A DNA stretch of 27,627 bases, from positions 1-27,627 of the forward strand of contig CAYJVY010000012.1 in the NCBI GenBank assembly GCA_964373795.1, given 5' to 3'. The notes beneath the pieces are model-generated. The model saw only the letters and a list, made by a program, of their open reading frames with translations. It was not told the DNA's origin and did not search any database. The position numbers and the translations under genes were made by a program. The DNA is from an uncultured archaeon (lineage in GTDB: Archaea > Iainarchaeota > Iainarchaeia > Iainarchaeales > DATDZZ01). Shown here one piece after another: positions 3,843 through 21,900 of the stretch (position 1 is its first letter; each line of letters starts with the position of its first letter).

Positions 3843-5151
3843 AAGGAGTTAATCTTTGAGGATCTCTTGGAAGAAGAATTGCTTCTTTCACGTTTTCTAG
3901 TTTCAATAAGCGTTGAACTAATCTGTCTAATCCAAATCCTACTCCTCCATGAGGAATTACTCCGTATTGAAAGATTAAAGAATAGTCTTTCATTTCATCT
4001 AAATTCAAGCCTTTTTCTGCTGCTTGTTTTTTTAGAACTTCATATCTGTGTTCTCTTTGCGCGCCAGTTGCAACCTCTACTCCGTTAAACAATAAATCAA
4101 ATGATTTAGTTGTATTAGGAATTTCTTCTGAAAGCATGTGATAAAAAGGCCTTTTGCTCCAAGGATAATTTGTTACAAAAACAAATTCTTCTTCGTGTTC
4201 TTTTAAAGCCCATTCTCCTAAAAGTCTTTCAGCTTCAGGATCTGGATCCTCTCCGTCTGGAAGATTTTTTCCTTTTTTCCTTAAAAGCTTGAATGCTTCA
4301 GGCAAGGAAATTCTTGGAATCTTTTTAGGAACAATCGGATCAACATTAAATAATTTAAATTCATTTTCACAGTTTTTTTTTAATTTTGTTATTACAAACT
4401 TCATGTAATCCTCTATTACATTCATTACATCGTGCTCGGAATTAATGAAACCCATTTCAAAATCTACTCCAGTGAATTCAGTTAAATGCCTTGTTGTAAG
4501 AGATTTTTCTGCACGAAAAACTGTTCCAATATCGTAAACCTTTTCAAAACCCGCTACAACCATCATTTGCTTGTAAATCTGAGGGCTTTGACTCAAGAAA
4601 GCTTTTCCTCCAAAATAATTTAATTCAAATAATTCTGCTCCTGATTCAACTCCTGCTTTAGTGATTTTAGGGCTTTGCATGCAAGTAAATCCTTTAGAGT
4701 CAAAAAATTCAGCTGTGAACAAAAAAAGCTTTGAACGAATTTTAAAAATCGCTAATTTTTTTGGATCCCTTAAATCCAAAAACCTGTAATCCAGTCTTAC
4801 AGATAAATCTGAAACAATTTTTCCAGAGGTATCAATTGGAGTAGGAGCTTTAGCTTTATTTATTAATTCAAAATTTGTTGGAATTAATTCAACTCCGTTT
4901 GGAGCTTGCTTTGCTTCTTGAATTTTTCCTTTAATTAAAACACTTGACTCCTTTGTTAATTCATTAAAAACAGCATAATCTTTAGCTGAAACAATTGATT
5001 TAGGCAAGGTAACTTGTAAAAAACCAGTTCTATCCTTGATTACAACAAATCTTAGCTTGCCAAAATCCCTTAAATCATGCACCCATCCGCCAACAGAAAT
5101 TTCAGTTAAAGGTTTTTTTTCTAAAACCTCTGTAATAAGCATTCTATTCAT
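3841..5151 (-). CDS. aspS: Aspartyl-tRNA synthetase, archaeal/eukaryotic type (class IIb)
   Basis: Motif 2 is FRAEKSLTTRHLTEFTGVDFEMGF. The C-terminus is GVIPHGGVGFGLDRLVQRLLKLENVKEAILLPRDPQRLTP. There is no bacterial GAD insertion. The ATG at 5151 is preceded by AGGTG with 5-nt spacing. The ORF-track start at 5157 is a GTG inside that SD. Confidence 0.92.
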   Translation of the reverse strand: MNRMLITEVLEKKPLTEISVGGWVHDLRDFGKLRFVVIKDRTGFLQVTLPKSIVSAKDYAVFNELTKESSVLIKGKIQEAKQAPNGVELIPTNFELINKAKAPTPIDTSGKIVSDLSVRLDYRFLDLRDPKKLAIFKIRSKLFLFTAEFFDSKGFTCMQSPKITKAGVESGAELFELNYFGGKAFLSQSPQIYKQMMVVAGFEKVYDIGTVFRAEKSLTTRHLTEFTGVDFEMGFINSEHDVMNVIEDYMKFVITKLKKNCENEFKLFNVDPIVPKKIPRISLPEAFKLLRKKGKNLPDGEDPDPEAERLLGEWALKEHEEEFVFVTNYPWSKRPFYHMLSEEIPNTTKSFDLLFNGVEVATGAQREHRYEVLKKQAAEKGLNLDEMKDYSLIFQYGVIPHGGVGFGLDRLVQRLLKLENVKEAILLPRDPQRLTP

Positions 5152-5340
5152 CAACACACCTTAAAGAAAAGCAATTGAAAAGAATTAAAAGACTAACCAA
5201 AATTGGTTTTCACCTCATCATTGCCTATATGAGTGGGTGTTAACGACATTAAAAAATAATACGATAAAGAGGCAAGGTTTAGTGCAAGGAATTGGTGGGA
5301 ATGCAAGGGAAAGGCAGTGTAAAGATGCGTTAAAATAGCT

Positions 5341-5670
5341 TTATTTTAACTTGAATATTTTGTTAAAGTCTATTTCGAACCCAGATGCGAATTGTTTTAT
5401 TCCTGCGTACACTAAGGCAATGCCCCCAATTACTAAATTCAATGCTAATTCTGAGATATCTTCAAATAATAATTTTATTCCAAATCCAAAAAACAATATT
5501 ATGAGTATTCCTGTGGGCAGTAAAAAAATTCCCCCCAGAATATTCATTACTGAGTTAAAATCTTTATCGTGATTAAATTTCTCTTTTCTTATAAAAATTT
5601 TGGTTAATATCCAGATTACTAAAAGAAGCAACACTAAAATTACTGTCGCTGGAAAAAAGTAAGACATCAT
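5341..5670 (-). CDS. Small integral membrane protein (109 aa, about 3 TM helices)
   Basis: Hydrophobic segments are FFPATVILVLLLLVIWILTKIF, ILGGIFLLPTGILIILFFGFGIKLL and LNLVIGGIALVYAGI. The ATG at 5670 lies 1 nt after the TGA of the preceding 49-aa ORF (TGATATG), and AGGT is 8 nt upstream. Confidence 0.6.
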   Translation of the reverse strand: MMSYFFPATVILVLLLLVIWILTKIFIRKEKFNHDKDFNSVMNILGGIFLLPTGILIILFFGFGIKLLFEDISELALNLVIGGIALVYAGIKQFASGFEIDFNKIFKLK

Positions 5671-5671
5671 A

Positions 5672-5821
5672 TCACTTGACCTGTTTTTTTAACCAATCTA
5701 TAACTGCTGGACCCAATAATGCCCCTAAAATAGCTCCGCCTGAACCAGCCATAACGCCGCCAGCAATAGCTCCAACTATTATTTTGCTTAATGTTTCTTG
5801 GTCTATGTCCGATTTTGCCAT
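5672..5821 (-). CDS. 49-aa glycine-zipper membrane peptide (below the ORF-track size cutoff)
   Basis: Hand translation gives MAKSDIDQETLSKIIVGAIAGGVMAGSGGAILGALLGPAVIDWLKKQVK followed by TGA. The ATG at 5821 lies 2 nt after the res stop (TAA AG ATG). The GxxxG/AxxxG zipper is typical of YmgE/GlsB-like peptides. Confidence 0.5.
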   Translation of the reverse strand: MAKSDIDQETLSKIIVGAIAGGVMAGSGGAILGALLGPAVIDWLKKQVK

Positions 5822-5823
5822 CT

Positions 5824-8799
5824 TTACCAACTCACACTTTTAGAGATGTCCTCAAAGCTGTCAAACCAGTATTTTTTGTATCCTTCTGAGAGTTTGTTTT
5901 TGTCTTCAGTGTACAAGAACAAGCATACATCTACTGCGTATTTGTCAAATTTGAATGTTTTTCGTTTTAATTTTTCTTCAAAAAGGAATTTGTAGCCGTC
6001 AACCTTATATTCATAGTCTGTATGGCTTGTTCCTTTTGGATCTGTAAATAATATCGTGTACTGGTTTCCTTTTTTTAGCCAGAAAATAAAGTCTGGCTTG
6101 AATTTCTCTATTTTATTGTGTGCTTTATTATAATATGGTAAATAAACCTCATCAGTATGTTCATCCAGTTTGCTGAACATCCACCAGTCGAACTGCGCCA
6201 AGAAATTGTTTTCTTTTTTCAAATAAACTTCAAGTTTCTCAATAAATCTTCGCTCGCTTTCCACACTAATAATGTGATTTATGTAATCTATTTTTTCTCT
6301 CGTTGAAAGAATTAAAGGAACATAATAATGATTGGCCACATTCTTTATTTTCAAGTCTTTAAATTCTTCTTCGCTTGAGCTTTTTGATAACTCTTTGATT
6401 TTTTTAGTGTATTCTTCAATGCTTATTTGTTTTTTCTCAAGCTTTTCTTTGAATTTTTCTTCTTCTTTTTCTGATGGAACAAACATTTTTACTTTCTCAA
6501 CAGCTTCCTTGAATTTCTCTAATTCGCTGTTTTCCAATGAAACCCTTATTTTTTTGAAGTGAATTATTTCATCCTCTAATTTCTTGAATTTATCAAGGTC
6601 TTGTAAGGTAATGTTTAGGTGGTCAACAAGTTTTTGCATTTGAATTGAAACATTTCTTGAACCATTTTCAATAAAACTGCCGTTCTCAACAAACTCTTTT
6701 GCCTCGCTAATGTGCTTTGGCTGAATTTCTCTTGCTTGCGATAACTGATTATAAATAATTTTTTCGTCTCCAAGCCAATTCAAATAGTCTTTTAACATTT
6801 GCCGGTTGCCTTCAAATTTTGGCAGTTCTGCAACAGCAACCATTTCTTTTCTGTCCTTATAAGTTGGGATAATAAGCTCTCTTTGTTTGGCGTCTATATT
6901 TTCTTCTAATTCAATTATTTCTCCCGCAGTTTTTCTTTCATACTTAATGCTTTCTAAAATCTTAGATACATTGGTTTTGCTTGTCCCAAAAACAAAAAGC
7001 GTTTCAATAAGCGACACAGCATAGTCATCAAGTTTAGAACACATTTCTTTTGCCAAATTTGTTTCTTTCTTTAATGGAATAAGCCTTTTTCTTTTTCCTT
7101 TAATTGGCTCAATTCTTACCCCTCTGCCAATTGATTGAGTAACATATTTTTTTGCGTCTCCGGTTCCAATGTTTATGAAAACCATTACATTTGGCCTGTT
7201 GCTGTCCCAGCCCTCATAAAAAGCCCTTGATCCCATCAAAATATTTACGTGATTGTCATCCTTGCTAATGCTTTTGAAAAAGCTTCTGTTTTCAAATGAC
7301 TCATTTATTTCATAGTTTTCAAGCTTTTCCTTTAACCAGGTTGTAATGTCTCCAATTTTGATTAATGCAAACGGCTGGTCAGAAGTCTTTAACTTGAAAA
7401 TGAGTTCTTCCCTGTTTGAAGGAATTTTTAGCACTTCAATTTTTCCAAAAGAAGACGCATTAAAAACCCATTTTAAAATGTCTTTTGCATCAATTTTTTC
7501 AATTAACTCTTTTTTTAGGATTAAGCTTTCGCTTCCAAACACAAACCTCGGGTGTTTTTCCAGTTCTTGAACAATCTCCTGCTTTGCTTTTTCCAATATT
7601 TCTTTATCAATGTCTCCTTTGGCAATGTTTTCTATTTCCTTAAAGAAAATTTCCAAATCTGAATCCTGAACATTTACAGAATTAACCAAAGAAACCATTA
7701 AAGGATTGTGATAAGCTGGATTTTGCAATTTTTTGTTAATTGTTTCCCTTGCCTTTTTTGCTATTGAAAGCAGGATTAGAGATTTTAGCACTATTTTTTG
7801 TTTTTCTTTGCTTTCAAAATAATCTTTTTGCTTAAAAACATTTAACTCTTGCTGTGAAAGATAAACATTCTTACCATATCCCTGCCTAATAAAGGCATCA
7901 AGGTTAAAGTTATAGATTGTTGTAAGAATATCCCACGCATCTGTAAAGGTTGCAGAAAAATTGAATATAAAACCGTTTCTTGTTAAAACAGAGTAATAAA
8001 TCTGCCTTTTTGAATCCTCTTTGTCTCCCTTATGCGCTTCATCAAGCAAAACATACCAATTGCCGTTGTTTTCAATATCTTCAAAGCTTAACAGCTTTTC
8101 CTTTGTTCTGTCTGAAATCAAGTCAGAGCGGTAAACAAAAACATTAATGTCTTCCTTGAATGAAAGCACTGTTCCTTTTTTTACTGAATCAAACTTTGTT
8201 AATTCCCACAATCTTATTTTTCTGTTTGCAAGCTTGTTAAATTCTTCAACGTGCTGTTTAATTTGCTCAATTAAATCTTCTCTATGAGTTAAAACCAGAA
8301 TGTCATTATCCGGGATTTGCTGGCCTCTTTTGAGTTTATCCAACAATTCAATTAGCTTTACTAAAATGATTGTTTTTCCTGAACCTGTTGCCATCCAGAA
8401 ACTCATTCTGTTAACAAAATTGTAAAAGTGAATCTTGTTATCATCAATTACTTTGTAGTATTCTTTTAGCTTGTTGAATAGTGCTTTGTTTCCTTTGCTT
8501 GTTATTCCAAGAGAATCAATCAGTTTGCCATCAAACCTTCTTGCTTCATTCAAAAGCTTTTTCTTTCTTTCAATGTTTGATAACTCGTTTTCTGTTTTGT
8601 TGTATTCTTGCAGTGAAACATAGTAATAGTGCAGGAAGTTTATTGCGTCTTTTATTGCTTCCTGCTGGTAATCAAAAAGCGAAATTTCTTTTGAGAAAGT
8701 GTTTAGTCTTGTGTCAATCCATTCTGATGGCAAGGTATTGAATTCTATTTCTTCAACCAAACCCTGAAAAATTAGCGGGATATTTTCTTTTTCAGCCAT
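5824..8799 (-). CDS. res: Type III restriction enzyme Res subunit (SF2 helicase plus C-terminal PD-(D/E)xK nuclease)
   Basis: Helicase motifs present: Q-like LFDYQQEAI, motif I MATGSGKT, motif II LLDEAHKG, motif III FSATF and motif VI QSIGRGVRI. The C-terminal nuclease signature is KPDFIFW...ILFTDPKG. The ATG at 8799 lies 2 nt after the mod TAG and is preceded by GGTGG. The ORF-track start at 8811 is a TTG overlapping mod. Confidence 0.9.
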   Translation of the reverse strand: MAEKENIPLIFQGLVEEIEFNTLPSEWIDTRLNTFSKEISLFDYQQEAIKDAINFLHYYYVSLQEYNKTENELSNIERKKKLLNEARRFDGKLIDSLGITSKGNKALFNKLKEYYKVIDDNKIHFYNFVNRMSFWMATGSGKTIILVKLIELLDKLKRGQQIPDNDILVLTHREDLIEQIKQHVEEFNKLANRKIRLWELTKFDSVKKGTVLSFKEDINVFVYRSDLISDRTKEKLLSFEDIENNGNWYVLLDEAHKGDKEDSKRQIYYSVLTRNGFIFNFSATFTDAWDILTTIYNFNLDAFIRQGYGKNVYLSQQELNVFKQKDYFESKEKQKIVLKSLILLSIAKKARETINKKLQNPAYHNPLMVSLVNSVNVQDSDLEIFFKEIENIAKGDIDKEILEKAKQEIVQELEKHPRFVFGSESLILKKELIEKIDAKDILKWVFNASSFGKIEVLKIPSNREELIFKLKTSDQPFALIKIGDITTWLKEKLENYEINESFENRSFFKSISKDDNHVNILMGSRAFYEGWDSNRPNVMVFINIGTGDAKKYVTQSIGRGVRIEPIKGKRKRLIPLKKETNLAKEMCSKLDDYAVSLIETLFVFGTSKTNVSKILESIKYERKTAGEIIELEENIDAKQRELIIPTYKDRKEMVAVAELPKFEGNRQMLKDYLNWLGDEKIIYNQLSQAREIQPKHISEAKEFVENGSFIENGSRNVSIQMQKLVDHLNITLQDLDKFKKLEDEIIHFKKIRVSLENSELEKFKEAVEKVKMFVPSEKEEEKFKEKLEKKQISIEEYTKKIKELSKSSSEEEFKDLKIKNVANHYYVPLILSTREKIDYINHIISVESERRFIEKLEVYLKKENNFLAQFDWWMFSKLDEHTDEVYLPYYNKAHNKIEKFKPDFIFWLKKGNQYTILFTDPKGTSHTDYEYKVDGYKFLFEEKLKRKTFKFDKYAVDVCLFLYTEDKNKLSEGYKKYWFDSFEDISKSVSW

Positions 8800-8801
8800 T
8801 G

Positions 8802-11288
8802 CTACCACCAAATCAATGGCCTAACCAAACCATAATCAAGCTTGTCAAACTCTATTTTTTCGTTTCCTTCCAAAACAACAAAACCTTTTCCAATTTTCTT
8901 AATCTTTTTTCCAGTTAAATTTGATATTGTTTCAGCTAAGTCAATGTTTGAATAAATCTTTGAAAAATCAACTTCAACCTTGTTCTTTTTGAAATCCAAT
9001 TCCATTGCTTTTAACAGCTTTTCATCTTTTAGGAAAACATACTGCTGGAAAATGCTTTTATCAGAAAAATCAGCAAAAGGATGACTCTCTTTATAAACAG
9101 CCTTCTTTAATGTTTGTTCGTATTGCTCTAAATCATAATACTTAAAGAAACCGCCACCATTCCAATTAACTTCTTTTGAAATACCTGATTTTTCTCCAGA
9201 CAAAACGCTTTTCATTCTCGGCAAAACAACAGAATCAAAATGCTCACCCATTTCAACGCCAAGCCATTTCCTACCAAGTTTATGGGCAACTGCTGTTGTT
9301 GTGCCACTGCCAAGGAAAAAGTCCATAACTAAATCTCCTTCATTGGAAGTGGATTCTATGACTCGTTTTAGGAGGGCTTCAGCATTCTCTGTCTGGAAGT
9401 CCCATCCAAAAGAATAACCCGGGATATCTGTCCAGTTAGAATCGATTTGTTTTTCTTCGGTGGGAGGTAAAAGGTATTCTACTCGTACTTTATTTTTATT
9501 TCCGCATTTTAAACAACCTTTCCAAGTTCCACTCGTATGTATATATCCGCAATTTTTACAAATCAATCTAATTTTTTGCTGTGCTTCCAATTCTCTAATT
9601 TTATTCTGTCCGTATGTCCAGTGCCTTCCTTCTGGTGGTTCGAACAAATAACCAAAAATATAAAGACCTTGCCCTTGCCCTTGCGAATCCATAGCATGCC
9701 ATCTTTCACTTTTTGCTTGTGTTAATTTTTTGAAAAGTAGATTAAATAAGAAGCTTTCATATTTAGAAAAAAGATAAAGCGAATCTGTAGCGGTATTAAA
9801 TTTCCTAACTTTAGGGTCTTGCTTGCTAATTCTACTAACAATTATTTCATTCCTAAAGTTTTCTTCTCCGAAGATGTTGTTTAACAACATTTTCACATAC
9901 ACATTTCCGTTGTAATCGCATCGGACAAATATGCTTCCTTTTTCGTTTAATAAATCTCTTGCTAAATTTATTCTGTTTTCAAGTAAGGTTATCCAGTTTG
10001 CATCTTTGTAATTTACGTTGTATAAGAAGTCTGCGTTTGTTCCTAAATTAAACGGTGGATCAATGTAAATTGTTTGTATTTGTTCTTGGAATTTTGGGAG
10101 AATGGTTTTTAGTGCTTGGTAGTTTTCTGAGTGAATTAACCAGCCGTCTAATTCGTTGTCTAAATCATCAAACAAAGAAAGCAATTCAAGTTTAATGTTT
10201 TCGTCAAAGTGCTTGGTGTCAATTGGCAAGTGCTCAAATTCTTTGTTTAAGCCCTTTCCGTTTAAATTATTAATCAGAATTTCATTTGGCTTAAAGTCTT
10301 TGCTTACAATTCCGAGTTCTTGCCATTCTTTTGCTTGCACTTCAAAGTTTTTGTGTTTTAAAATTTCTTGAATTAGCTTGTTTCCTTCTTTTTTCTTGGA
10401 AATTCTGTCCAAGGTAATTACATAGTTTGAGTTTAACACAAATTTTGGCTTGTTCCAGACTTTTACTAATTCATCTTCAAACTGTGCTACAAAGTCAATT
10501 GTCTTAAAGGCTATTTCTTTCAAAGCTTTTAACTCTTTTAATCTTCTTTCTTGGAAAAGGCTTTCTTCATCCATCAAATAGTTTTTAATCCATAAATCGA
10601 ATTGTTCTTTCAAAAACTTTTCAGCATTTTTGTTAATGAAAAAGTCCACTTCGTTTTGTTTTTCAAATATTCTGAAAATCCTAGTCAAGCCTTCTTCTTC
10701 AATAAAGACTTTTTTCTTTTTGAAGTCTTTTAAAACTTCATCTGTTTTTGTTTTTCTCCCTTTTTCAGAATAAAAAACATTGAAAGTGATTTCTTTTTCT
10801 TTCACGTTTTTTAATTCGTACATTATTTCTTTTTTCTCGTTTCCTTTTTTGTGTTCAAGCTTTGAAACATCAAAATGGATTTTATAAGAAATTCCATCTT
10901 CGTCAAAATCAATCGTCAAGTTTTTCCAAATTTTGTCACTTTTGACATAGTAAAGCATTTGAGTTTTCCAAAACAAGGCAACATCTTTGTTGTTAGTGTA
11001 AACCTGTTCATAAACTTTTGATTTCAGCGGAGTGTAGCTGAAGTAAATGCTTCCTGATTCAGAAAAATAGGTTTTAAAAAAAGAATATAATTTGTCAAAC
11101 ATTTCCTCTTTAAACTCGGGAAACTCTTTTGTTTTTCCTTCAATTTCTTTATTTAATTCCTTGAAAATTATATCAAAGTAAGCTGACTTCATTCTCATCA
11201 AATTAATAAAGCCAGAATCCCCTTCTATCTTGGCTCCAATGAAAATGTCTTTCAATTGGTCAAAAAACAATTTTTCTTTTTGAGTCAT
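8802..11288 (-). CDS. mod: Type III-like Mod DNA methyltransferase (N6A/N4C, beta-class motif order) with a long N-terminal extension
   Basis: Motif IV is IYIDPPFN at residues about 407-414. Motif I is DFFLGSGTTTAVAHKLGRKWLGVEM near the C-terminal third. A CxxC...CxxC zinc ribbon (CKNCGYIHTSGTWKGCLKCG) sits between them. The gene lies directly upstream of res with a 2-nt gap. Confidence 0.9.
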   Translation of the reverse strand: MTQKEKLFFDQLKDIFIGAKIEGDSGFINLMRMKSAYFDIIFKELNKEIEGKTKEFPEFKEEMFDKLYSFFKTYFSESGSIYFSYTPLKSKVYEQVYTNNKDVALFWKTQMLYYVKSDKIWKNLTIDFDEDGISYKIHFDVSKLEHKKGNEKKEIMYELKNVKEKEITFNVFYSEKGRKTKTDEVLKDFKKKKVFIEEEGLTRIFRIFEKQNEVDFFINKNAEKFLKEQFDLWIKNYLMDEESLFQERRLKELKALKEIAFKTIDFVAQFEDELVKVWNKPKFVLNSNYVITLDRISKKKEGNKLIQEILKHKNFEVQAKEWQELGIVSKDFKPNEILINNLNGKGLNKEFEHLPIDTKHFDENIKLELLSLFDDLDNELDGWLIHSENYQALKTILPKFQEQIQTIYIDPPFNLGTNADFLYNVNYKDANWITLLENRINLARDLLNEKGSIFVRCDYNGNVYVKMLLNNIFGEENFRNEIIVSRISKQDPKVRKFNTATDSLYLFSKYESFLFNLLFKKLTQAKSERWHAMDSQGQGQGLYIFGYLFEPPEGRHWTYGQNKIRELEAQQKIRLICKNCGYIHTSGTWKGCLKCGNKNKVRVEYLLPPTEEKQIDSNWTDIPGYSFGWDFQTENAEALLKRVIESTSNEGDLVMDFFLGSGTTTAVAHKLGRKWLGVEMGEHFDSVVLPRMKSVLSGEKSGISKEVNWNGGGFFKYYDLEQYEQTLKKAVYKESHPFADFSDKSIFQQYVFLKDEKLLKAMELDFKKNKVEVDFSKIYSNIDLAETISNLTGKKIKKIGKGFVVLEGNEKIEFDKLDYGLVRPLIWW

Positions 11289-11437
11289 TCCTTATTCGCC
11301 TCTAATTCTTTTTTCATAAAATTCTCAACCTGTTTAGATAGAATTATTCCTTTCTTCTCACAGTATGCTCGATATTTATCATAAACTTGTTCTTCAATAC
11401 TTAAAGCAACAGTTTTTTTAGCCAACCCAAACACCAC
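11285..11437 (-). CDS. Small ribbon-helix-helix (CopG-like) protein, putative controller of the RM operon
   Basis: Hand translation gives (V)VFGLAKKTVALSIEEQVYDKYRAYCEKKGIILSKQVENFMKKELEANKE. The layout is RHH-like: beta-strand KTVALSI plus two helices. Its TGA overlaps the mod ATG (ATGA). Only GTG (11437, 11434) or TTG (11425) starts are available, and there is an in-frame TAA just upstream. Confidence 0.5.
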   Translation of the reverse strand: MVFGLAKKTVALSIEEQVYDKYRAYCEKKGIILSKQVENFMKKELEANKE

Positions 11438-11439
11438 TT

Positions 11440-11470
11440 ACATATACTTCTATATGTGTTTATATATCAA
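11440..11470 (-). promoter_or_regulatory. Putative TATA box plus 7-4-7 inverted repeat operator upstream of the RHH-mod-res operon
   Basis: ACATATA (11440-11446) and TATATGT (11451-11457) form a perfect inverted repeat with a 4-nt spacer, 3 nt upstream of the GTG at 11437. The minus strand reads TTGATATATAAAC about 27 nt upstream of that GTG. This is consistent with an archaeal TATA box and a leaderless transcript. Confidence 0.4.
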
Positions 11471-11598
11471 GTCTTTTTAAAGCTTTTCAGGGAGTAGATT
11501 TCCAATGAACAAAAATAGAACAATAAGTAAATAGCCCTTACTTTTGCTTATATTTGGCATCTTTACATTAGTTTATTCTGCAAGTGTTTCAGTTGTCT

Positions 11599-11901
11599 TT
11601 AATTTGGATTGGAGTAGCAGGTCTTAATTTTTAATATGCCGAAGGCTTTTTTAGTGTTAGATTTTGTTAGTGTTTTCCCATATTCTTCTAAAATGTAGAA
11701 AAATGACCAAATAAATACTACACTAAGAATTGTTCCAACTATTGTGAAGAAAAATAAAATTGCCTTCACTAAGTTACCATCTAATAAGAATGACAAGCTT
11801 GGGGAAATAATTGCAATAAGTAATGCTAACCATCCTTGTTTTTTAATTTCAGTAAAAACATAAGTTAATGCATTTTTGTAAGCCTTAAGTTTATTGCCCA
11901 T
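11599..11901 (-). CDS. Hypothetical membrane protein (100 aa, 2 TM)
   Basis: The ORF has hydrophobic segments WLALLIAIISPSLSFLL and AILFFFTIVGTILSVVFIWSFFYIL. It overlaps the upstream ORF by 37 nt. Confidence 0.45.
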   Translation of the reverse strand: MGNKLKAYKNALTYVFTEIKKQGWLALLIAIISPSLSFLLDGNLVKAILFFFTIVGTILSVVFIWSFFYILEEYGKTLTKSNTKKAFGILKIKTCYSNPN

Positions 11902-12110
11902 ATAAATCCATATTCGTTATATAAGTGGTATCCGATATATGCCAGAATTAAGCCTAAAACAAATAACGCTACGGTGCTATTGAGTGTCGGATATTTCAAT
12001 AGCAAATCATTTAATTGTGGTATAACTATTGCAATTCTCAAACCTATCAAAACAAGATAAGCTCCAATTAGTGCGACAATAAATCCTGCTATTTGCTTTA
12101 TGTTTGTCAT
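11865..12110 (-). CDS. Hypothetical membrane protein (81 aa, 2-3 TM)
   Basis: The ORF has IAGFIVALIGAYLVLIGLRIAIVI and VALFVLGLILAYIGYHL. It is on the same strand as its neighbours and close to them. Confidence 0.5.
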   Translation of the reverse strand: MTNIKQIAGFIVALIGAYLVLIGLRIAIVIPQLNDLLLKYPTLNSTVALFVLGLILAYIGYHLYNEYGFIWAINLRLTKMH

Positions 12111-12125
12111 TAATTACCACCTTTA

Positions 12126-12314
12126 TTAAATTTCCAATATCTTCCAGCTACTCAAATCGTTTGGATTGTATTCATATTTTTCTTGGTCGTTGTAGCGCCA
12201 AGTACCGTTTACATAAATGGCTATTCCACCCCAGAGCTTTTTCCCTTTCTTGTTTTGTTCTTTAATATACTTTTGCAGCCCCTCTGCTCTTGGTCTAGCA
12301 TCCTTTGCTGTCAT
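12126..12314 (-). CDS. Hypothetical small protein (62 aa)
   Basis: ORF MTAKDARPRAEGLQKYIKEQNKKGKKLWGGIAIYVNGTWRY... Its ATG overlaps the TGA of an upstream 43-codon ORF (ATGA). No family was recognised. Confidence 0.4.
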   Translation of the reverse strand: MTAKDARPRAEGLQKYIKEQNKKGKKLWGGIAIYVNGTWRYNDQEKYEYNPNDLSSWKILEI

Positions 12315-12442
12315 CCCACTTTTCGTGTCGAATAAGCCGATGGTTCCACCTTGAGTTGAGTATCCCTAATAAAAGACTCTATTAATCTTTTTGGAATTCT
12401 AGTGTGAGGATCAATTAGTCTTACTGTAATTTTTCCAGTCAT
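12311..12442 (-). CDS. Hypothetical 43-aa ORF
   Basis: Hand translation gives MTGKITVRLIDPHTRIPKRLIESFIRDTQLKVEPSAYSTRKVG. It is the first ORF downstream of tRNA-Asn and is stop/start-coupled to the next ORF. Support is weak because of its size. Confidence 0.3.
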   Translation of the reverse strand: MTGKITVRLIDPHTRIPKRLIESFIRDTQLKVEPSAYSTRKVG

Positions 12443-12490
12443 AAAATAACTAATTCCTTTTAGATTAATAAATTATCTTTTTTTAAGAAA

Positions 12491-12564
12491 CTGGGGGAGA
12501 GAGATTCGAACTCCCGCCATCCGAGTTAACAGCCCGGTATCCTAAACCGCTAGACTATCCCCCT
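12491..12564 (-). tRNA. tRNA-Asn (anticodon GUU), no encoded CCA
   Basis: The reverse complement is AGGGGGAUAGUCUAGCGGUUUAGGAUACCGGGCUGUUAACUCGGAUGGCGGGAGUUCGAAUCUCUCUCCCCCAG. It folds as a cloverleaf with anticodon stem CCGGG/CUCGG, loop CUGUUAA, T arm GGGAG-UUCGAAU-CUCUC and discriminator G73 (as expected for Asn). It is followed by TTTCTT. Position 1:72 reads A:A. Confidence 0.9.
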
Positions 12565-12768
12565 AAATTTTTGAATATGTTTTTTTCACTAGAAAAAACA
12601 CTAAAAAGTTAACAAAAACCTAAAACGTTTAATTGGCCTACCTAGAAGCTTCTAGTGAGTATCCAGAATATATGTAATTCCGGCTTAATAAACTTTTTTA
12701 CAATAAAATCGATGAAAATACGATAAAAATGCAGTATATTTAATAATATTTCGGACAATTTACGTATT

Positions 12769-13212
12769 ATGCTTGACAAACTTGACTTTGAGGTTTTGAA
12801 TTTATTGGAGGAAGATTCAAGTACTTCTATTAGCAGGCTTGCATTAAAGCTTGGAATTCCTAAAACAACTTTGTTTGATAGAATTAAAAAATTGCGAAAA
12901 GAAGGAGTAATAAAGAAATTCAGTATTGTGAAAGATTTTGAAAAACTTGGATTAGAAGCAACTGCATTTATTTTAGTTAAATTCACTCCTCTTTCAATAA
13001 AACATGTTTCACAGAAAAGAGTTGCAGAAGAAATTTCTAAATTAAAAGGAGTTCAAGAAGTGCATATTATTTCAGGCGAATACGACATTCTAGTTAAAGC
13101 CATTGCTAAAAACTTGAAAGAATTAGGAAAACTAGTAGTAGAAAAACTTAGAGAAGTAGACGGAGTATCTGAAACAGTTACTTGCACTGTATTTGAAACC
13201 CTTAAACAGTGA
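12769..13212 (+). CDS. Lrp/AsnC family transcriptional regulator
   Basis: The 147-aa product has an N-terminal wHTH (LDFEVLNLLEEDSSTSISRLALKLGIPKTTLFDRIKKLRKEGVIKKF). This is followed by a RAM-type ligand domain (GLEATAFILVKF...VQEVHIISGEYDILVKAIAKN). Confidence 0.9.
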   Translation: MLDKLDFEVLNLLEEDSSTSISRLALKLGIPKTTLFDRIKKLRKEGVIKKFSIVKDFEKLGLEATAFILVKFTPLSIKHVSQKRVAEEISKLKGVQEVHIISGEYDILVKAIAKNLKELGKLVVEKLREVDGVSETVTCTVFETLKQ

Positions 13213-13510
13213 GATTATTCTGCAATCACAATGTTTTCTTCCCACAAAAAGAACTAGTGATTCCAACAATTTTAGTCCTGTCCTTTGGAGACAGGCATCA
13301 ACAATCTTTGGAGAAAAATTCGGAAAAACAAAAATAACAAAAAACAAAAGCCTGGAAGGAACAGTAACAGGAATCGCAATCGCAACCTTAATACCACTGC
13401 CAATATTCTCCTTCAGCAAAGCACTAGGAATAGCACTAATATGAATGCTAGCAGAATACCTGCCACTGAATGACAACTTACAGTGCCTTTTTGCACTGCG
13501 CTTGCAGTAA
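13209..13510 (+). pseudogene. Remnant of a polyprenol/dolichol-kinase-like (CTP_transf_1-like) membrane protein gene
   Basis: The frame starting at 13209 gives ...PTILVLSFGD. After a 2-nt shift the next frame gives ASTIFGEKFGKTKITKNKSLEGTVTGIAIATLIP...ALGIALI. An in-frame TGA follows at 13442-13444, then MLAEYLPLNDNL... to TAA at 13508-13510. The pattern GD.A..i.G..fGk.ki..nKSlEG....DNL resembles the C-terminal half of this family. The N-terminal half is absent. Confidence 0.4.
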
Positions 13511-13599
13511 CACTAATTTGACATAAGTTTATTAGTATTAATAAATAAAATATACGTATGACTCAGACTAATAAAACAGGTTCAGTCGTCCATCAGAGC

Positions 13600-14052
13600 C
13601 TATCTTGTCGAACTCCATTGATTATTATTCTCATTGCTTTCAGCTACCTCTTGATAGGAATCCGCTAAAATCCTGATAGAATTTCCCTTATCTGACATTG
13701 TCCATATGAAACTCTCCTCAATAGCTTGTTCTTGACCAGACTCCAAACCAAGAATACTAAAAGACCCTACCAATATTTTTCCGTTGAAAATTTGAGCTTT
13801 AGACAAAGCAGCAGTAGAAGTTCCAGAATTCTTTATCTTAACACTGAACTTTACAACATCACCCTCTTTAGGATTTTCTGGTGTCCATGTAGCTTCTGTA
13901 ATAATTAGGTCAGGCATTGATAATGATGTTACTTGTGTTTTGATCGGCATTTGTGTAGCTGGCTGTTTTGACACTTCATCAGATTTTATGCACCCACTAA
14001 CCAAAACAACTGAAATTAACACTAATGATAGTAAAAAAATCTTTCTGCCCAT
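13600..14052 (-). CDS. Secreted/lipobox protein with CARDB-like domain
   Basis: The signal peptide MGRKIFLLSLVLISVVLVSGC is followed by PDLIITEATWTPENPKEGDVVKFSVKIKNSGTSTA, and the protein ends ESNENNN. This is the typical CARDB pattern. Confidence 0.75.
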   Translation of the reverse strand: MGRKIFLLSLVLISVVLVSGCIKSDEVSKQPATQMPIKTQVTSLSMPDLIITEATWTPENPKEGDVVKFSVKIKNSGTSTAALSKAQIFNGKILVGSFSILGLESGQEQAIEESFIWTMSDKGNSIRILADSYQEVAESNENNNQWSSTR

Positions 14053-14385
14053 ATAATTTATATTGGTGATTGCTACACTTTCGCACCAAATCTCCTTAAT
14101 ATTATGCCAACCAACAACTTAAATACATTTTCTTCCAGTGGTTGAGCCTGCTGTATTGCATGCCTGTGTCTGATTCTGTTTTTCTATATAAGTTTGGACT
14201 TAAAAGAAGACATGATAGGAAGCATAATGTCGTGTCTCTCAATATTTAACTATTGTAAAGTTATATTGGGTTAATCCAATGCATCAAAGCCAAAGGCTTA
14301 GATCCGTGCGAAAAAAACCACTGCCTAATTTTGTCCTAGACTCTTTTTTTCTCGGGGTGAAAAAAATGGCAGTTGCAAAATCTCA

Positions 14386-15129
14386 TTAGTAATTTTCTTT
14401 GTAATAACTGCAACTCTTGCGAAGAAAACATTTTTCACATAAAGGTTTTTTCTGGCACAAGTTTTTAGCGAATTCAACTAAAAGCGCATGAAACTCGTTA
14501 AAGGTTTTCACCTTCTCTTTTTCCGACAAATCCTGAAAAGCTTTTTCAAATTCTTTTTGCAATGCACCATAATTTGAATAATCAAAATCTCCCCCAAATA
14601 ACTGCAAGCAGTCAGCAACGCGTTTAGTGTAAGCATCTATTACAAAAACAGGTTTTTGTGCAGCATAGAGTAAAATTGAATCAGCTGTTTCAAAACCAAT
14701 TCCTTTCAATGAAAGCAATTCTTTTCGCAACTCTTGTAACGGTTTTGAAAACAATTTATTCAAACTACCAGAATAATTTTTTTGTAAATATTTTGCAATT
14801 AAAATAATTCTTTCACTTTTTTGATTAAAATAGCCAGCAGATTTAATTATTGAAACTAGTTTTGTTTTCGAAATACTGGAAAGCGTTTCAACTTCAATTA
14901 AGTTTTCAGAAGATAAATTCGTTAAAGCTTTTTCCACATTTTTCCAAGAAGTGTTTTGAGTTAGAATTGCTCCGAGAAAAATTTCTAGCAACTCTTTTTC
15001 TGAAAACTTTTTTTCTAAAGTTTTTTGATATTCAATTTTGCATGTTTTTTTGTTAAAAGTTGGCCACCACCCTTGGCTACCAAACTCTGAGAAAAGTTTT
15101 TTGTAGAGCTGCAAAGCAGAAATAGTCAT
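14386..15129 (-). CDS. Endonuclease III-related HhH-GPD DNA glycosylase with 4Fe-4S cluster
   Basis: The helix-hairpin-helix is LKGIGFETADSILLYA and the catalytic Asp context is VIDAYTKRV. The C-terminal cluster is CQKKPLCEKCFLRKSC (C-x6-C-x2-C-x5-C). The N-terminal GWWP is typical of the EndoIII-related COG2231 group. Confidence 0.85.
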   Translation of the reverse strand: MTISALQLYKKLFSEFGSQGWWPTFNKKTCKIEYQKTLEKKFSEKELLEIFLGAILTQNTSWKNVEKALTNLSSENLIEVETLSSISKTKLVSIIKSAGYFNQKSERIILIAKYLQKNYSGSLNKLFSKPLQELRKELLSLKGIGFETADSILLYAAQKPVFVIDAYTKRVADCLQLFGGDFDYSNYGALQKEFEKAFQDLSEKEKVKTFNEFHALLVEFAKNLCQKKPLCEKCFLRKSCSYYKENY

Positions 15130-15925: not shown

Positions 15926-18900
15926 TTATTTGCATGTAAAATCTATTTTGCCAGGTAAAACACTATTGTAATATGCTTTTTCTTCGTTTAATGCTTTGAA
16001 TAATTCTGATTCATTCCAAAAGAATTCAACCTTTTGCCCATCGTTTGAAACGCATAGCATTTGTTGTTCAATTAATTCCATCATTTTAGATAAAGAATTG
16101 TTTTGCTCTAAAAAGTTTAATGAAGAATCATGTAAAGGTAATTCAGTTGTTTGATTTGGCATTTGACTTGTTCTAAGATATTCTCCTCTAGAGTTTTGGA
16201 ATAACTGTAAATTATTTGGATTAGTTGTTAAATCATTGCAAGCAGAATATAAATTATATTTTTCATTAATTGGAGTGTAAAAAATTGATTGCAAGAAAAC
16301 CATTGAGTCATTATTTAATCCGTTTCTTGTATCGTTCCAATTAAATCCGTAAACCTTGTCTGTATTGATTGGAACATCTAAATCTTGTCTTAAAGCACAA
16401 CTTCCAGGAGCATTTAAAGATGCTTGAACGTCTTTTTGATTTAAAGGCATTAAAGCTCCTTTAAAGTCTTTACACAAACCAGTTCCTTCAGTCATTGTTG
16501 AACCAGTTCCACTCCATACATTTCCATTTGTCCCTAAAGAAATTAATGGAGTTGTTCCAGATTTTTTCAAAAAATAATATTGTGAAGCCTTGTCTGCTTT
16601 TTGTTGCATTCCCATTAAAATAGGAGCAGCATTTGATGGACTGAAAACCAGTTTTCTTGAAGGAGAATCAAAAGAGAAAACCTTTCCTCTAGAAGAATTA
16701 TTTAATGCATTTATTTCAGAGTTAACATCTACTCTTATTTTTGGAAACTTCACTGCATCATAGTCAGGGTTTTCATATTCATTTGCATTTACAACTAATT
16801 TACTGCTTCTAACTAAAGTTATTCCTGTTCCGGTTAAAGGAATTCCATATCCTGTTCTCTTAAATTTTCCTGTACTTGAATCAAATCCAATCATTCCATC
16901 AAATGGAATGCTGTATAATGGATTGTTTGCAGGAATTTCTCCTACTTTGTTTAAAGTAATTGTTACTGAAACATTTGGATTAGGGTTTCCGCTTACAAAA
17001 AATAATTGATTTACTTTGTCATCAAAATTGAAATCCATGTCAACAGAGTAAAGTCCTGGTTCTTTTAATGGAATTAATGGATCTCCGTTAATGTCAACTA
17101 TTTTAAATCTTGAAGGAGTTTGCATGATTTTAAAAACTCCGTCATCTGAAGCATAAAACCAGTCTGGAACATCGTTTACTGCAATATTATTTTTATAGTA
17201 TGATACAAAGTCTTGCAATAAATCTTCACTGTAACCGTCTTTCATTAAAGCAACAGTGAAATTTGCGTACTTAAATCTTTCCTGAGAATTTACATCAGTA
17301 TATAATTTTTTAATTTCATTCAATCTTTTTGCAAGCATTATATTGAATTGAACTGCATCACAGTACTTGAATTCAGGGTTTGCAGTATCACATTTATCTA
17401 AAGAAATTGATTGCCAATCCCAGTTATATTCAAGTAAAGGCTTTGCATCTTTTCCAGTTGTTCCTTTCAATCCAGCTGAAGAAAAACAAGTAGCTGCTTC
17501 TCCGGATGAAACCTTTACATGAAAGGATTCTTGCCCTGTTTTAATTCCTCCTTTTCCATTATCTAAAGTGTCTTGAACTTTTAGCAAAGCAAATTGATCT
17601 CCTCCAGGAGCATTTCTATTAAGCAAACTAAAATCAATTAATCCTTGATGATCTTTATCTGGAGACAAATAATCCACTAATACTCCGTGAAGCTTTGTCT
17701 TCAAGCTAGCTGAAGCATCAGAGTAAGTTGAAATCATAATTTTATCAGATCTGTCTTTAACTGGATAACCTCCTGCAAGGGAAGTTAAAGCAAATCCAAG
17801 CAAATATTTTTCATTGCAATAATATGTTCCACAAAACCCATTTACAAGTGATTGCACTCCAGCTCCAATGCATTTTCCTTTATAATCAGTTCCACAATCA
17901 GTGTTAAAAAAATAATTTTCAACTCCGCCTACTGCTTGCTTTAATAAAATTAATGGCTGTAAATTTGTTACATCAATTGCATTTAATGAAAGAGTTCTAA
18001 AATAAGGCGAAAAATATGGAGCCCTATTTTTCACTGAATTTTCTAATCCAGTTTTTAACTGAGTTGAAATAATTGACTGCCAATCAGTTTTTGGCTTAAT
18101 TTTAATGTCATGCCCTGCAGTTGAAAGCTCAGTGTTTTTATCCACTCCAATCATTGAATAAACTTTTGTTGAAAGCAAGCTTGGCTCGGTTTTAGGAATC
18201 GTTAAATACCCTGAATGATATTGATCACAAACACGTACTCGTTTATAACAGCCTTCACTTACACTATGACTACATCCTCTAGAAAAACATCTACAGCTTT
18301 TTGTTACATTTCTACAATCGACTGCAGGAGTAATAATTGTTCCATGAAGAGTATGCCATCCTTGAGTTAAAGTAAAAATTTTTCTTCCTCCAGGAGCATT
18401 TATTACGCCTTCGTTTGGAGTGCCTTCATCTATTTTTAAATAACCGCTCCAACCTCCAGGCCAATATATTTCAATTGGAATGTTTTGCCCTGTTTTTTCC
18501 GCTACATAAAACCATGACTTAAAATTAATTCCAAGAGAATCTCCATTTGTAATTAAAAACAACCATTTCATATCAGAAGGCAAGCCATTAGGCAAATAAG
18601 GACTAGGAGTTGAATCACCAATATCATTTCCAGCTAAAGGTCTTCCTTCAGCATCACATGCTCCAATGCTATAACAATATACTGGATCCATTTTTCCTTT
18701 CAATGGATCGCAATCAGCATTTGGAGCAGTACACCAAGTTAATTCTCCTAACATGTTTCTTTCCAATGCACTTGAATAACCAATTCTTTGATCATCTGTT
18801 GCAACTAAGTCTATTGCGTTAATGAAAACCTTTTCAGCTCCTTCTTTTAGAATTGGAAACTCAAATTCATTTCCAGGAGGTAATTCAGTAAAAGTTGAAT

Positions 18901-21900
18901 CACTTAAATAATTCACTACTCCTTTATATTCTGGATCACTTGGAGGAGAAATAACTTTTCTTTCAATTTTATTTGGATCGTTGTCAATAACATCATAGTA
19001 AACTAATTTGTTTTGCTCTGCAAACCTATCAGCTAATGAAGCTAAACCTAGTCCTCTCACTACTTCTACTTTAGGCATTTCATGGTTTTCAGTGTACTTA
19101 AAGCATTGATTTGTTGCAGTATCAGGTATTACAGTAAATTTTCCTTTATCTTGTCCTAAAGTAATGTTGTACTTGAATTTGTTTAAAGAAAAACAACTGC
19201 TTTGCCCTGGCGGAGTTTCAACTAATACTTCTTTTAATTTTGCTTCAGCTGGATTAAAATTAGTTAAAGTATCTGCAGCTTTTTTAATGTTAACCAATAT
19301 TTCGTAAAACCCTATATTAGTTGCATCTCTTACCTCTATTTCTTGTTTTCCTGCTTTAAGTAATTTAAATGTTTCAGGCGAGAAAGAAATGCTTACTCCC
19401 TGAGCATATAAAGGTTTTTCTAACTTGAATTCTAATTCATCACTGCAATTATTTATTACTTCAAATCTTCCAATTGCCCCTTTAATGAATTGAACTTGAT
19501 TTAATCCAATGTCAACACAACTGAAACGCACATTGCCTCCAAGCTTTGAAGCAACCTCTAAAGATTTTTCTGCTTCTTTAAATGGAACTTTTAAAGCCTT
19601 GAAAAAATATTTGTCTCCTGCTTGAAGATTATCTAAAACAATTGAAACAAATCCACTTGAATTAGTTGTAAAAGTTTGAACATTTCCTGAAGAAAAATCA
19701 TTGTCTCCTTTCTTTAACTTAATTTGAGCAAAAGAAATTAATTGATCTTTATCGTCTTTAATTCTTACAACTAAATTATTTGAAATTCCTGTAAACAATT
19801 TTTCTGGAAGAATTTCAAGTTTTAATTCTCTTTTAGGCAATACATTAAACCTCAATGTTTCCTTGTTGTCAGGCAAATTCACTTTAATATTGAAATCCAT
19901 TATACTAGGAGTAGAAGTTTTTTGAGGAGTGAAATCAAATTTGAAATCCTTTGACTGACGTGGATCCCAAACACTTCCAGAAGAAAAAGTCTTGGAATCA
20001 AATCCTAAAAAATCCTTATTTGCGTTATCTGCTGTAACAATTATTCCAACATTGTTAAAGGTTTGCTCTGTTTGATTTAATACACTGAATTCAAGGGAAT
20101 AAGTTATTCCTTGTTCTAATCCTATAAAGCTTTGACTTTTTGGATCAATTTTTGAGTCAAGCATGCTTCCTGGAACTCCTCCTTTAATGTGAAAACTGAA
20201 AGCAAATTTAGGGCATTTAGGATCTCTTGCATCACAAAAAATTGTTTTCCCTACAACAAAGCCTCTTTCAGTTAAATCAATCTCTGATTTAATTCCATTA
20301 AAATCTGCTTCTCCTTGAAATCTAACTTTAAAAGAGTTATTATCAGTGTTCTCGTCAACTTTAATTCTCACTCCGAATTCATATACTCCTTCTCTTAAAT
20401 TTGAGTTCTTGAAATTAATTTGCCTTCCAATTAAATTTGAAGGCTTAGAGTTAGTGAAAGGACTTCCTGAAACAAATTCCGTTGACAAAACTCCTTTTTC
20501 TCCTCCCAGTAAATCTGATTCTTTTAAAACAGCAACTAATTCATTTAAAGGAGTTGACTCTCGATCCATTCTAAAATGAATTTTAGTTGAATCAGGTTTT
20601 TTTCTTAAAAACAAATTAAATAATAAAAAGTATTCATTTGAAGGCAAAATACTTGAAACTCTTTTTCTGTCAAGTGATTGAACTTCAATTAATTTTAAGT
20701 CAAAATCTTTTGAAAGACTTGCTTGTTTAGTTAAAACAATTTTGGAAACAATGGATTCATTTTTTCCAATTGAATAACAAAAAGAATTAAATGACAGGAA
20801 ACCATTTTTGTCTACTAAAATGAAAGGCTGTTTATCTATTTTGAATTCTTTTTTAACAGTTCTTCCATCTGAATCAGTTAAAACACTTGCCAGTAATTCA
20901 TTGTCAGAACAGTTAACAAATTTCACTAAAGCTCCTGAAACCTTGTTCCCAGAATCATCTACTAATTCTACTTGAATTGCCCCACTAGCTAAAACAAGTG
21001 AAACATTTAAATCCAATTCTTTAGTTTTAGAATTAATTGCAGCCTTTGAAGACTTTCCTGAAGCAGTTTGATTACTTGCTTCAGCAAAATATTCTCCTTC
21101 TAAGGGAAGATTTGAAAAACTAATTCTTCCATCTTTTCCAGTTAATTGCTTTGAAGCAACAATTGGAATTCCTGGATTCAAAGAATTAAACAATAAAACA
21201 TTTACTCCTTCCACTGCAACCTTGTCAGTGTTTTGCACTAAAACATTTACTTTTCCATAATTCAATTGCTTTCCATTCAAGTCGTTTAAAGCCTTTTCTA
21301 ATTTAATTATTTCAGGGTCTTTAACGCTTTTCAATACTAGTTTTACTTTCACTATTTTGTTAACATAATTTGTTGCTCTTACAAGCAATGAATAATTTGA
21401 ATCAGCATCAGCTGGAGCAGAAAACTTTCCCTCAGCATCACTTGAAGAAGTCATGGAAAACTTTGCATCAGTGAAAACATCTAATTGGGCTTGAATTCCT
21501 GAATTAGAATTTGCGTCAACTATTTTTACAAAAATTTGCTTTCTTTTATTCTCTGGAACAGGAGTTAAAACAATTGTTGTTTCAAAAGGCTTTGAAGCAT
21601 CACTAAAAGAAAAACTTGAATCCTCTGAACTAAATTCAGCCAAGGCATGAAATGCGAATGCTTTATAGCTTCCAGTTGGCATGTTTGAAAAAGAAACAGT
21701 TCCACTTTCACTTGATTCTTGAGTTCCAACAACATTTGAACTAGTGCTTCCAGTGTCTTCAACCAAGTTAACAGTAATCCCAGTTAAAGGTTTTCCTTGA
21801 GAGTCAACTAATTTAACAATAATTGTTCCTTTTTTTGCATTATTTGCAAGAGAAGCTTGTTGTTTTTCTAATTGAAAAACATTTGATCCACTGCTTAAAA

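Follow-up and report, generated by a model that had tools for sequence, protein, structure and literature searches.

Does a restriction-modification (RM) operon that ends in genes for small membrane proteins use those proteins in defence, or do they only share its transcript? The question is raised by a locus on contig CAYJVY010000012.1, whose 27,627 nt we refer to as the window. Here a ribbon-helix-helix (RHH)-like gene, a Type III methyltransferase gene (mod), a Type III restriction gene (res) and two genes for small hydrophobic proteins, p49 and p109, follow one another with almost no space between them. An earlier note on this DNA had suggested that the five genes make up an extended RM system with its own membrane effectors. 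Our analysis points instead, with good though not complete confidence, to an ordinary Type III cassette under an RHH controller and, behind it on the same transcript, two orphan membrane-protein genes for which no link to restriction can be demonstrated.

Organization of the locus

The open reading frame (ORF) list and a direct reading of the sequence gave five consecutive ORFs (RHH, mod, res, p49 and p109) on the minus strand between 5341 and 11437. In the direction of transcription, the features are:

11432..11482, minus strand: putative promoter/operator, with a TATA-like box, an inverted repeat and a GGTG motif that suggest this function
11285..11425, minus strand: RHH-like gene, 46 aa from a TTG start, extendable to a GTG at 11437 (50-aa ORF)
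8802..11288, minus strand: mod, Type III methyltransferase, 828 aa
5824..8799, minus strand: res, Type III restriction subunit, 991 aa
5672..5821, minus strand: p49, orphan 49-aa glycine-zipper hydrophobic peptide
5341..5670, minus strand: p109, orphan 109-aa membrane protein with three predicted helices
5158..5340, minus strand: non-coding spacer between p109 and the aspartyl-tRNA synthetase (AspRS) gene, with a T6 run and the likely AspRS promoter

The RHH/mod junction is an ATGA overlap, and the mod/res, res/p49 and p49/p109 junctions measure 2, 2 and 1 nt. CA separates the mod stop TAG from the res ATG at 8799, AG the res stop TAA from the p49 ATG, and a single T the p49 stop TGA from the p109 ATG. 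The earlier note was exact on the five ORFs, their order and strand and all of these distances, and its gene identities (RHH-like protein, Type III Mod, Res, glycine-zipper peptide and three-helix membrane protein) and compact co-directional layout were borne out as well. Translational coupling of the five ORFs would be a reading of the spacing alone.

Past the operon, the first long T-run is the T6 at 5251-5256, a possible archaeal termination signal. The codon log-likelihood of the spacer (5158-5340) is below zero in all six frames, and no bacterial-type hairpin terminator was found in it. A scan for bacterial-type promoters and terminators near res, p49 and p109, a method ill-suited to archaea, returned counts no higher than the shuffle expectation. 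The archaeal setting that had been proposed for this DNA is likely, given the short AspRS (436 aa), the TATA-like box and the origin of the closest Res relatives in metagenome-assembled genomes (MAGs) of Woesearchaeota and Pacearchaeota.

Mod and Res form a Type III pair from a widespread family

Mod aligned from end to end with the PADLOC MTase_III model PDLC03638 (residues 1-828 on model positions 1-816, 1019.7 bits) and also matched Pfam N6_N4_Mtase (E=3e-36). Its motif IV (DPPF, residues 410-413) precedes motif I (FxGxG, here FFLGSGTT, residues 657-664), and among solved structures it comes closest to Type III Mod subunits (6k0w, 7dsu and EcoP15I 4zcf). These matches identify Mod, at the level of sequence, as a Type III methyltransferase. 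The target-recognition region contains an inserted Cys4 zinc-ribbon (CKNCGY...CLKCGN, residues 577-597, window 9500-9560), and no simple-sequence repeats of the phase-variation type were found in mod. The mod gene of two close relatives is broken into two ORFs (locus L001, 1883-4381, 514+181 aa; locus L124, 2526-4999, 589+235 aa), suggesting that some cassettes in the clade are decaying.

Res matched Pfam ResIII (E=1.4e-17), with further matches to DEAD and SWI2_SNF2, and matched PADLOC REase_III (PDLC03654, E=3e-28) over part of the protein. It carries the helicase motifs MATGSGKT (residues 136-143, Walker A), LDEAHKG (252-258, DEAH-like) and QSIGRGVR (555-562, motif VI), and a C-terminal PD..DxK motif (PDF 902-904, DPK 920-922) in a putative nuclease domain, for whose fold no profile or structure match was found. 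The helicase and PDF/DPK motifs are invariant across 14 diverse homologues at 48-67% identity (alignment A1). Profiles and conserved motifs together identify Res as a Type III restriction subunit.

The family to which this pair belongs is very large and widespread in archaea and bacteria. Res homologues amounted to 3589 proteins at E<=1e-10, relatives being labelled Type III res in their source records, and 572 stretches in species-representative genomes were confirmed, in many phyla of both archaea and bacteria. Those closest, with 62-68% identity, are from DPANN-type MAGs (Pacearchaeota and Woesearchaeota) and from metagenomes. For comparison we assembled 102 Res-family loci: 80 genome loci, ten further close relatives retrieved by exact protein look-up, and 12 predicted viral contigs from IMG/VR that were matched by the Res profile. 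Mod is encoded in 68 of the 80 genome loci, in all 68 upstream of and co-directional with res, and it lies at most 70 nt from res in 44 of the 67 scored loci. The conserved unit is the mod-res pair. The closest viral contig (L126, 62% identity) likewise has a plain mod-res pair, with neither the RHH gene nor the small ORFs. A viral origin of the locus was considered and rejected, as IMG/VR searches with p109 and with the single Res sequence gave no match.

p49 and p109 do not recur beside res

p49 and p109 are orphans. In a word-indexed search of 5.8 billion proteins each returned only itself, and an exhaustive phmmer search, run with p109 only against 1.84 billion cluster representatives, likewise gave the self-match and nothing else. 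tBLASTn detected neither protein in any of the 102 Res-family loci. The earlier note had said that its extended variant would be refuted if the small ORFs proved not to be conserved beside homologous mod-res pairs, and this is the outcome that the comparison gave; the variant is not supported. Neither matched a PADLOC model at E<=0.1 or, significantly, any NCBIfam or PHROG family, and no relatives were found among solved structures. A PADLOC check, among those that the earlier note had recommended, recognized Mod as MTase_III and Res as REase_III and offered no model for p49 and p109.

We also examined what stands downstream of res in the related loci. In 29 of the 76 loci whose downstream sequence was long enough, a co-directional ORF starts between -30 and +60 nt from the res stop. 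All-against-all BLASTP of the regions downstream of res in these 76 loci revealed no family shared by independent loci, with the exception of one short-ORF cluster from four bacterial loci, apparently the translation of a conserved non-coding element (A3). About 100 nt long (core ...GGCGGGCGGAAACGCTGGG...TTGCTCAAAAAAGGTTCGCACTTCGTTCAGTAATTGCGAC), this element occurs 60-400 nt past the end of res in bacterial loci of different phyla, four in all (L019 at about 10040-10210, L021 at about 9965-10150, L030 at about 4830-5025 and L044 at about 2760-2930), and it has no match in Rfam. A small ORF with a predicted transmembrane (TM) segment follows res in only four of the 76 loci, three of them independent, and there is thus no enrichment of such ORFs. 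The expectation that the small membrane ORFs would co-occur with Res homologues was accordingly not supported by the gene neighbourhoods, in which no downstream family recurs.

Several of the genes that do follow res can be named. In L001, a Type II methyltransferase gene of a separate system overlaps the res stop by 4 nt. In L081 (9012-11593), a gene for a 346-aa protein with C-terminal TM segments overlaps the end of res and is followed by one for a 516-aa protein with weak PIWI/pAgo matches (PADLOC PprPIWI, E=7e-9); the two are possibly a short-Argonaute system with a membrane effector. In L083, the gene after res is an IS240-type transposase gene. The slot downstream of res is variable and often occupied by another defence system.

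Extra genes also stand between mod and res, where they take up 0.5-3.9 kb in 21 of 67 scored loci. Among them are toxin-antitoxin-like nucleotidyltransferase/HEPN-like pairs (PADLOC PDC-M05A/B, in L001 and L082), genes for RNase H and DUF553, genes for HTH_3-M78 and DUF4411, and groups of 130-220-aa proteins of unknown kind. In this family the space between mod and res seems to be a hot spot for modules that hitch-hike, as in these loci:

L001, 4383-7008: insert between mod and res
L082, 5086-6008: insert between mod and res
L086, 3881-5995: insert between mod and res
L123, 3338-4980: insert between mod and res
L081, 4116-5969: insert between mod and res
L122, 2203-5008: insert between mod and res

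These inserts and the named downstream genes indicate that the cassette sits in defence islands, in which unrelated modules are minimally spaced. Since res can be tightly joined to systems that are clearly separate, a tight junction alone is no proof of membership. The minimal junctions, first taken as a sign that the five genes form one system, therefore count for little, the overlapping Type II methyltransferase gene of L001 being a case in point.

A probable small DNA-binding protein precedes mod

The RHH ORF (11285-11437) opens at a GTG, and the TTG at 11425 is the likelier start (46 aa, MAKKTV...) because a GGTG lies 6 nt upstream of it and because this start matches that of a homologue in locus L002. 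All profile matches of the protein were sub-threshold, and all were of RHH type: DUF6364 (E=1.9e-4), RepB-RCR_reg, CcdA and a PHROG Arc-like repressor (E=6e-4). The profile searches gave no helix-turn-helix (HTH) match. A single-sequence AlphaFold2 model has an extended N-terminus followed by two helices, at a predicted local distance difference test score (pLDDT) of 84.5. Foldseek comparison of this model with the PDB returned only matches at E>3, which is uninformative for a 46-residue monomer. From the profiles and the model, the protein is probably a ribbon-helix-helix regulator.

Three short elements could be read in the sequence upstream of its start:

11476-11481, minus strand: TATA-like TTTAAA
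11440-11457, minus strand: perfect 7-bp inverted repeat ACATATA-N4-TATATGT, between the TATA-like box and the RHH start
11432-11435, minus strand: Shine-Dalgarno-like GGTG motif

The inverted repeat is a candidate operator, of a kind that is not rare in AT-rich DNA. A Thermoplasmata MAG (L002) encodes, immediately before mod, a homologue 55% identical to the RHH-like protein, and the DNA ahead of that gene is arranged as in the window (TTTAAA, CATATA-type repeats, GGTG, start codon). The closest Res relative, L086, has a decayed RHH copy with an in-frame stop upstream of mod.

More generally, a small co-directional ORF ends at the mod start in 24 of the 42 loci with enough upstream sequence. 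Those 24 include HTH_3 proteins in L008, L019, L021 and L036 and HTH_17 proteins in L009 and L041. With RHH, HTH_3 and HTH_17 proteins all found before mod, this position is a recurrent slot for unrelated small DNA-binding proteins, and by analogy it looks like a controller-protein slot. What had been proposed here, a small DNA-binding protein ahead of mod, is a genuine and recurring trait of the family, as the RHH genes of L002 and L086 and the HTH genes of six loci attest.

How the two small membrane proteins are best explained

We propose that a horizontally mobile cassette, consisting of the promoter, the RHH gene, mod and res, would have come to lie in a variable, lineage-specific region of an archaeal genome that is low in GC and probably of DPANN type. 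Judging from family membership, Mod would be a beta-class N6-adenine-type methyltransferase (DPPF) that hemi-methylates an asymmetric site and supplies target recognition, and Res would be an SF2 ATPase with a C-terminal PD..DxK nuclease that binds Mod, uses ATP for communication between unmethylated sites and then cuts foreign DNA. The RHH protein would most likely act as a controller-type autoregulator, predicted to bind ACATATA-N4-TATATGT and to set the expression of mod and res. We infer that p49 and p109 are read from the same transcript as res, since the junctions are too short to hold any signals. Both would be lineage-specific small membrane proteins typical of archaeal variable islands and not components of restriction.

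Some of the evidence weighs against this proposal. The 2-nt and 1-nt junctions leave no space for a terminator or promoter and make co-expression with res very probable, as would be expected of a functional partner. The orphan status of p49 and p109 is evidence of non-conservation, not of non-function. The RHH assignment draws on sub-threshold profiles and a single-sequence model, for which Foldseek was uninformative. Finally, Res found no sequence match among solved structures, EcoP15I Res included, even when a 14-sequence profile was used, and therefore belongs to a divergent branch of the Type III kind.

Alternatively, p49 and p109 could form a toxin/immunity or addiction pair in their own right, carried along on the RM transcript, that stabilises the island or serves cell-cell competition, independently of restriction. 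We consider this unlikely. Their size and order are like those of known pairs in which a small hydrophobic immunity protein comes after a peptide of ionophoric or bacteriocin-like type; CdiI proteins have 72-100 residues (PMC11630599). p49 contains eight glycines, with GxxxG repeats at G17/21, G22/26 and G29/33/37, and a hydrophobic stretch of 28 residues (I14-I41), and its N-terminus bears a loose resemblance to a double-glycine leader (...IAGG). In the AlphaFold2 model of p109, three long helices span residues 5-29, 37-68 and 70-106 (mean pLDDT 73.6). Toxin-antitoxin-like nucleotidyltransferase/HEPN-like pairs also lie inside the operons of L001 and L082. p49 also has a weak similarity to the Gly-rich part of microcin V, but the match to Pfam MccV (17.7 bits, E=0.0055) is under the cut-off of 27 and falls within a Gly/Ala-rich low-complexity stretch. 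Nor was a C39-peptidase ATP-binding cassette (ABC) exporter found among the ORFs of at least 90 aa in the 27.6-kb window, and we rejected p49 as a bacteriocin on these two grounds. No homologues of either protein were found that could show co-variation of the two.

The idea of the earlier note, that p49 and p109 are membrane effectors or sensors of the Type III enzyme in a five-gene RM-plus-effector system, for example as an abortive-infection back-up, now appears quite improbable. It has a precedent as a hypothesis, in that some Pyrococci encode variable membrane proteins next to RM genes, for which a role in membrane-associated defence was suggested (PMC4158269, Makarova et al. 2014). It would also fit the 2-nt and 1-nt junctions with no signals between the genes, the genuine coding signal of both ORFs (see below), and the glycine-zipper helix of p49, a feature known from pore-forming and ionophoric proteins (PMC11630599). 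The close relative L081 even has a TM protein directly after res, though there it is paired with a PIWI-like gene. What tells against it is chiefly the comparison of loci: homologues of p49 and p109 were found nowhere, the 102 Res-family loci included, no family recurs downstream of res, and small TM ORFs follow it in only four of 76 loci. PADLOC has no model for either ORF, and equally tight junctions link res to clearly separate systems. A variant in which the two form a lineage-specific membrane-active module tied to the Type III enzyme, for example a membrane-permeabilising back-up set free on failure of restriction, with p109 as gatekeeper, we also regard as a slim prospect; it would couple a restriction system to an effector evolved de novo in a DPANN-type archaeon.

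p49 and p109 are probably real genes, as judged from their composition and position. In sequences of 666 nt simulated by a first-order Markov model from the composition of the window, an ATG ORF that reached 109 aa or more on a given strand arose with p=0.0015, and an ATG ORF of at least 49 aa opening at most 6 nt from the res stop with p=0.0027. A codon-usage log-likelihood model trained on ten other window genes ranked the annotated frame as the best of six for both, with per-codon scores of +0.425 (p49) and +0.126 (p109) and an off-frame mean of -0.6; on the same scale mod and res score about +0.23, and the neighbouring small membrane ORFs score 0.07-0.14. p49 has a first-codon-position GC of 0.52 in a genome of 32% GC, and it is called as a gene (P0122) in the protein collection. 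That one or both ORFs are non-functional, being chance or recently arisen frames in the 3' flank that are transcribed as 3' untranslated region, is therefore very unlikely: their strict orphan status and the low codon score of p109 relative to mod and res would fit this, but that score is comparable to those of the nearby small membrane ORFs, p49 is Gly-rich with a high first-position GC, the lengths and positions of both ORFs are improbable by chance, the annotated frames score best, and both ATG starts lie 1-2 nt past the preceding stop.

Genomic setting

In the three contigs that carry the closest relatives of the window AspRS (L087, L114 and L093, 58-63% identity), a gene for an HhH-GPD glycosylase lies 120-700 nt upstream of the AspRS gene. 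The window has a homologue of this gene at 14386-15129, separated from AspRS by 9.2 kb (5158-14385) that contain genes for a CARDB protein, an Lrp-type regulator and tRNA-Asn, a frameshifted small gene, the 81- and 100-aa membrane ORFs and the five-ORF operon. By comparison with these contigs, 5158-14385 is a lineage-specific variable region. Integration at the tRNA-Asn gene (12490-12566) was considered and rejected, as no direct repeat of the tRNA 3' end was found in 5100-12700 and no integrase was found.

Just upstream of the RM promoter, and on the same strand as the operon, small membrane ORFs of 81 and 100 aa overlap each other (11599-12110, minus strand), and a 27-aa hydrophobic ORF (11477-11560, minus strand) lies beside them. 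None of the three has a family match, and none is paralogous to p49 or p109; within-window BLASTP gave nothing significant among p49, p109 and the 81- and 100-aa ORFs, and paralogy of these four was rejected. The RM cassette may have landed within a run of small membrane-protein genes.

At 12126-12442 (minus strand), 43-aa and 62-aa ORFs joined by ATGA are apparently the pieces of a single frameshifted gene. In a Woesearchaeota genome (L084 8999-9265; L085 4276-4542), res is followed after 8 nt by an 88-aa ORF to which the 62-aa piece is 52% identical. A DTK motif in the 88-aa ORF reads STR in the window copy, and there is no family match. This frameshifted gene may be a frequent companion of the Mod/Res family. 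Further along, 15926-22594 (minus strand) encodes a 2222-aa protein with immunoglobulin-like, CarboxypepD_reg and MG4-type repeats, presumably one of those giant surface proteins that are common in DPANN archaea.

Comparison with known systems

With the Type III systems EcoP15I and EcoP1I the locus shares a mod gene upstream of res in one operon, a Mod in which motif IV comes before motif I and a target-recognition region is central, and a Res with an N-terminal SF2 helicase and a C-terminal PD..DxK motif. It differs in that Res is too divergent from EcoP15I Res to be detected by PDB sequence or profile searches, and in that Mod is longer (828 aa), carries a zinc-ribbon in its recognition region and lacks phase-variation repeats.

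The front of the operon resembles RM operons regulated by controller (C) proteins, of the C.PvuII, C.AhdI and C.Esp1396I type. In both, a very small DNA-binding protein is encoded just before the first enzyme gene, in the same direction and with an overlap, and an inverted repeat stands between a promoter element and the controller start. Classical C proteins are of Xre-type HTH, whereas the window protein is RHH-like; Xre-type HTH proteins fill the same slot in other members of the Mod/Res family. The C-protein operons also encode a Type II pair, in contrast to the Type III pair of the window, where the operator is a predicted one.

For the idea of an attached effector the precedent is PrrC, an abortive-infection effector encoded with a restriction system in the EcoprrI Type Ic operon. 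PrrC is a conserved and recognisable anticodon nuclease that recurs with Type Ic systems. What the two loci have in common is an extra non-RM gene within an RM operon; unlike PrrC, p49 and p109 are orphans and do not recur. A literature search for archaeal Type III RM systems with membrane effectors found no described system.

The order of a short Gly-zipper peptide followed by a small multi-helix membrane protein is shared with the ionophore/CdiI pairs of contact-dependent growth inhibition (CDI) (PMC11630599) and with microcin V. The window differs from both in having no significant sequence match to them and no delivery domain, leader peptidase or exporter nearby, and CdiI is a two-helix hairpin (PMC11630599) as against the three predicted helices of p109. 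The archaeal 'dark matter islands', in which small and transmembrane proteins are over-represented (PMC4158269, Makarova et al. 2014), resemble the locus in being narrowly distributed and fast-evolving clusters with small or TM proteins beside defence genes and with housekeeping borders. They are a descriptive category with no mechanism attached, and no integrase or att repeat was found at the locus.

Implications

As one more member of a very large Type III family, the locus carries little weight for the discovery of defence systems. If p49 and p109 did work with the enzyme, they would exemplify a restriction system that recruits a newly evolved membrane effector; the evidence points elsewhere. 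The slot before mod, filled as it is by unrelated folds (RHH, HTH_3 and HTH_17), suggests that controller-type regulation may be common outside Type II systems. In compact archaeal genomes, moreover, minimal intergenic spacing is no indicator of functional membership.

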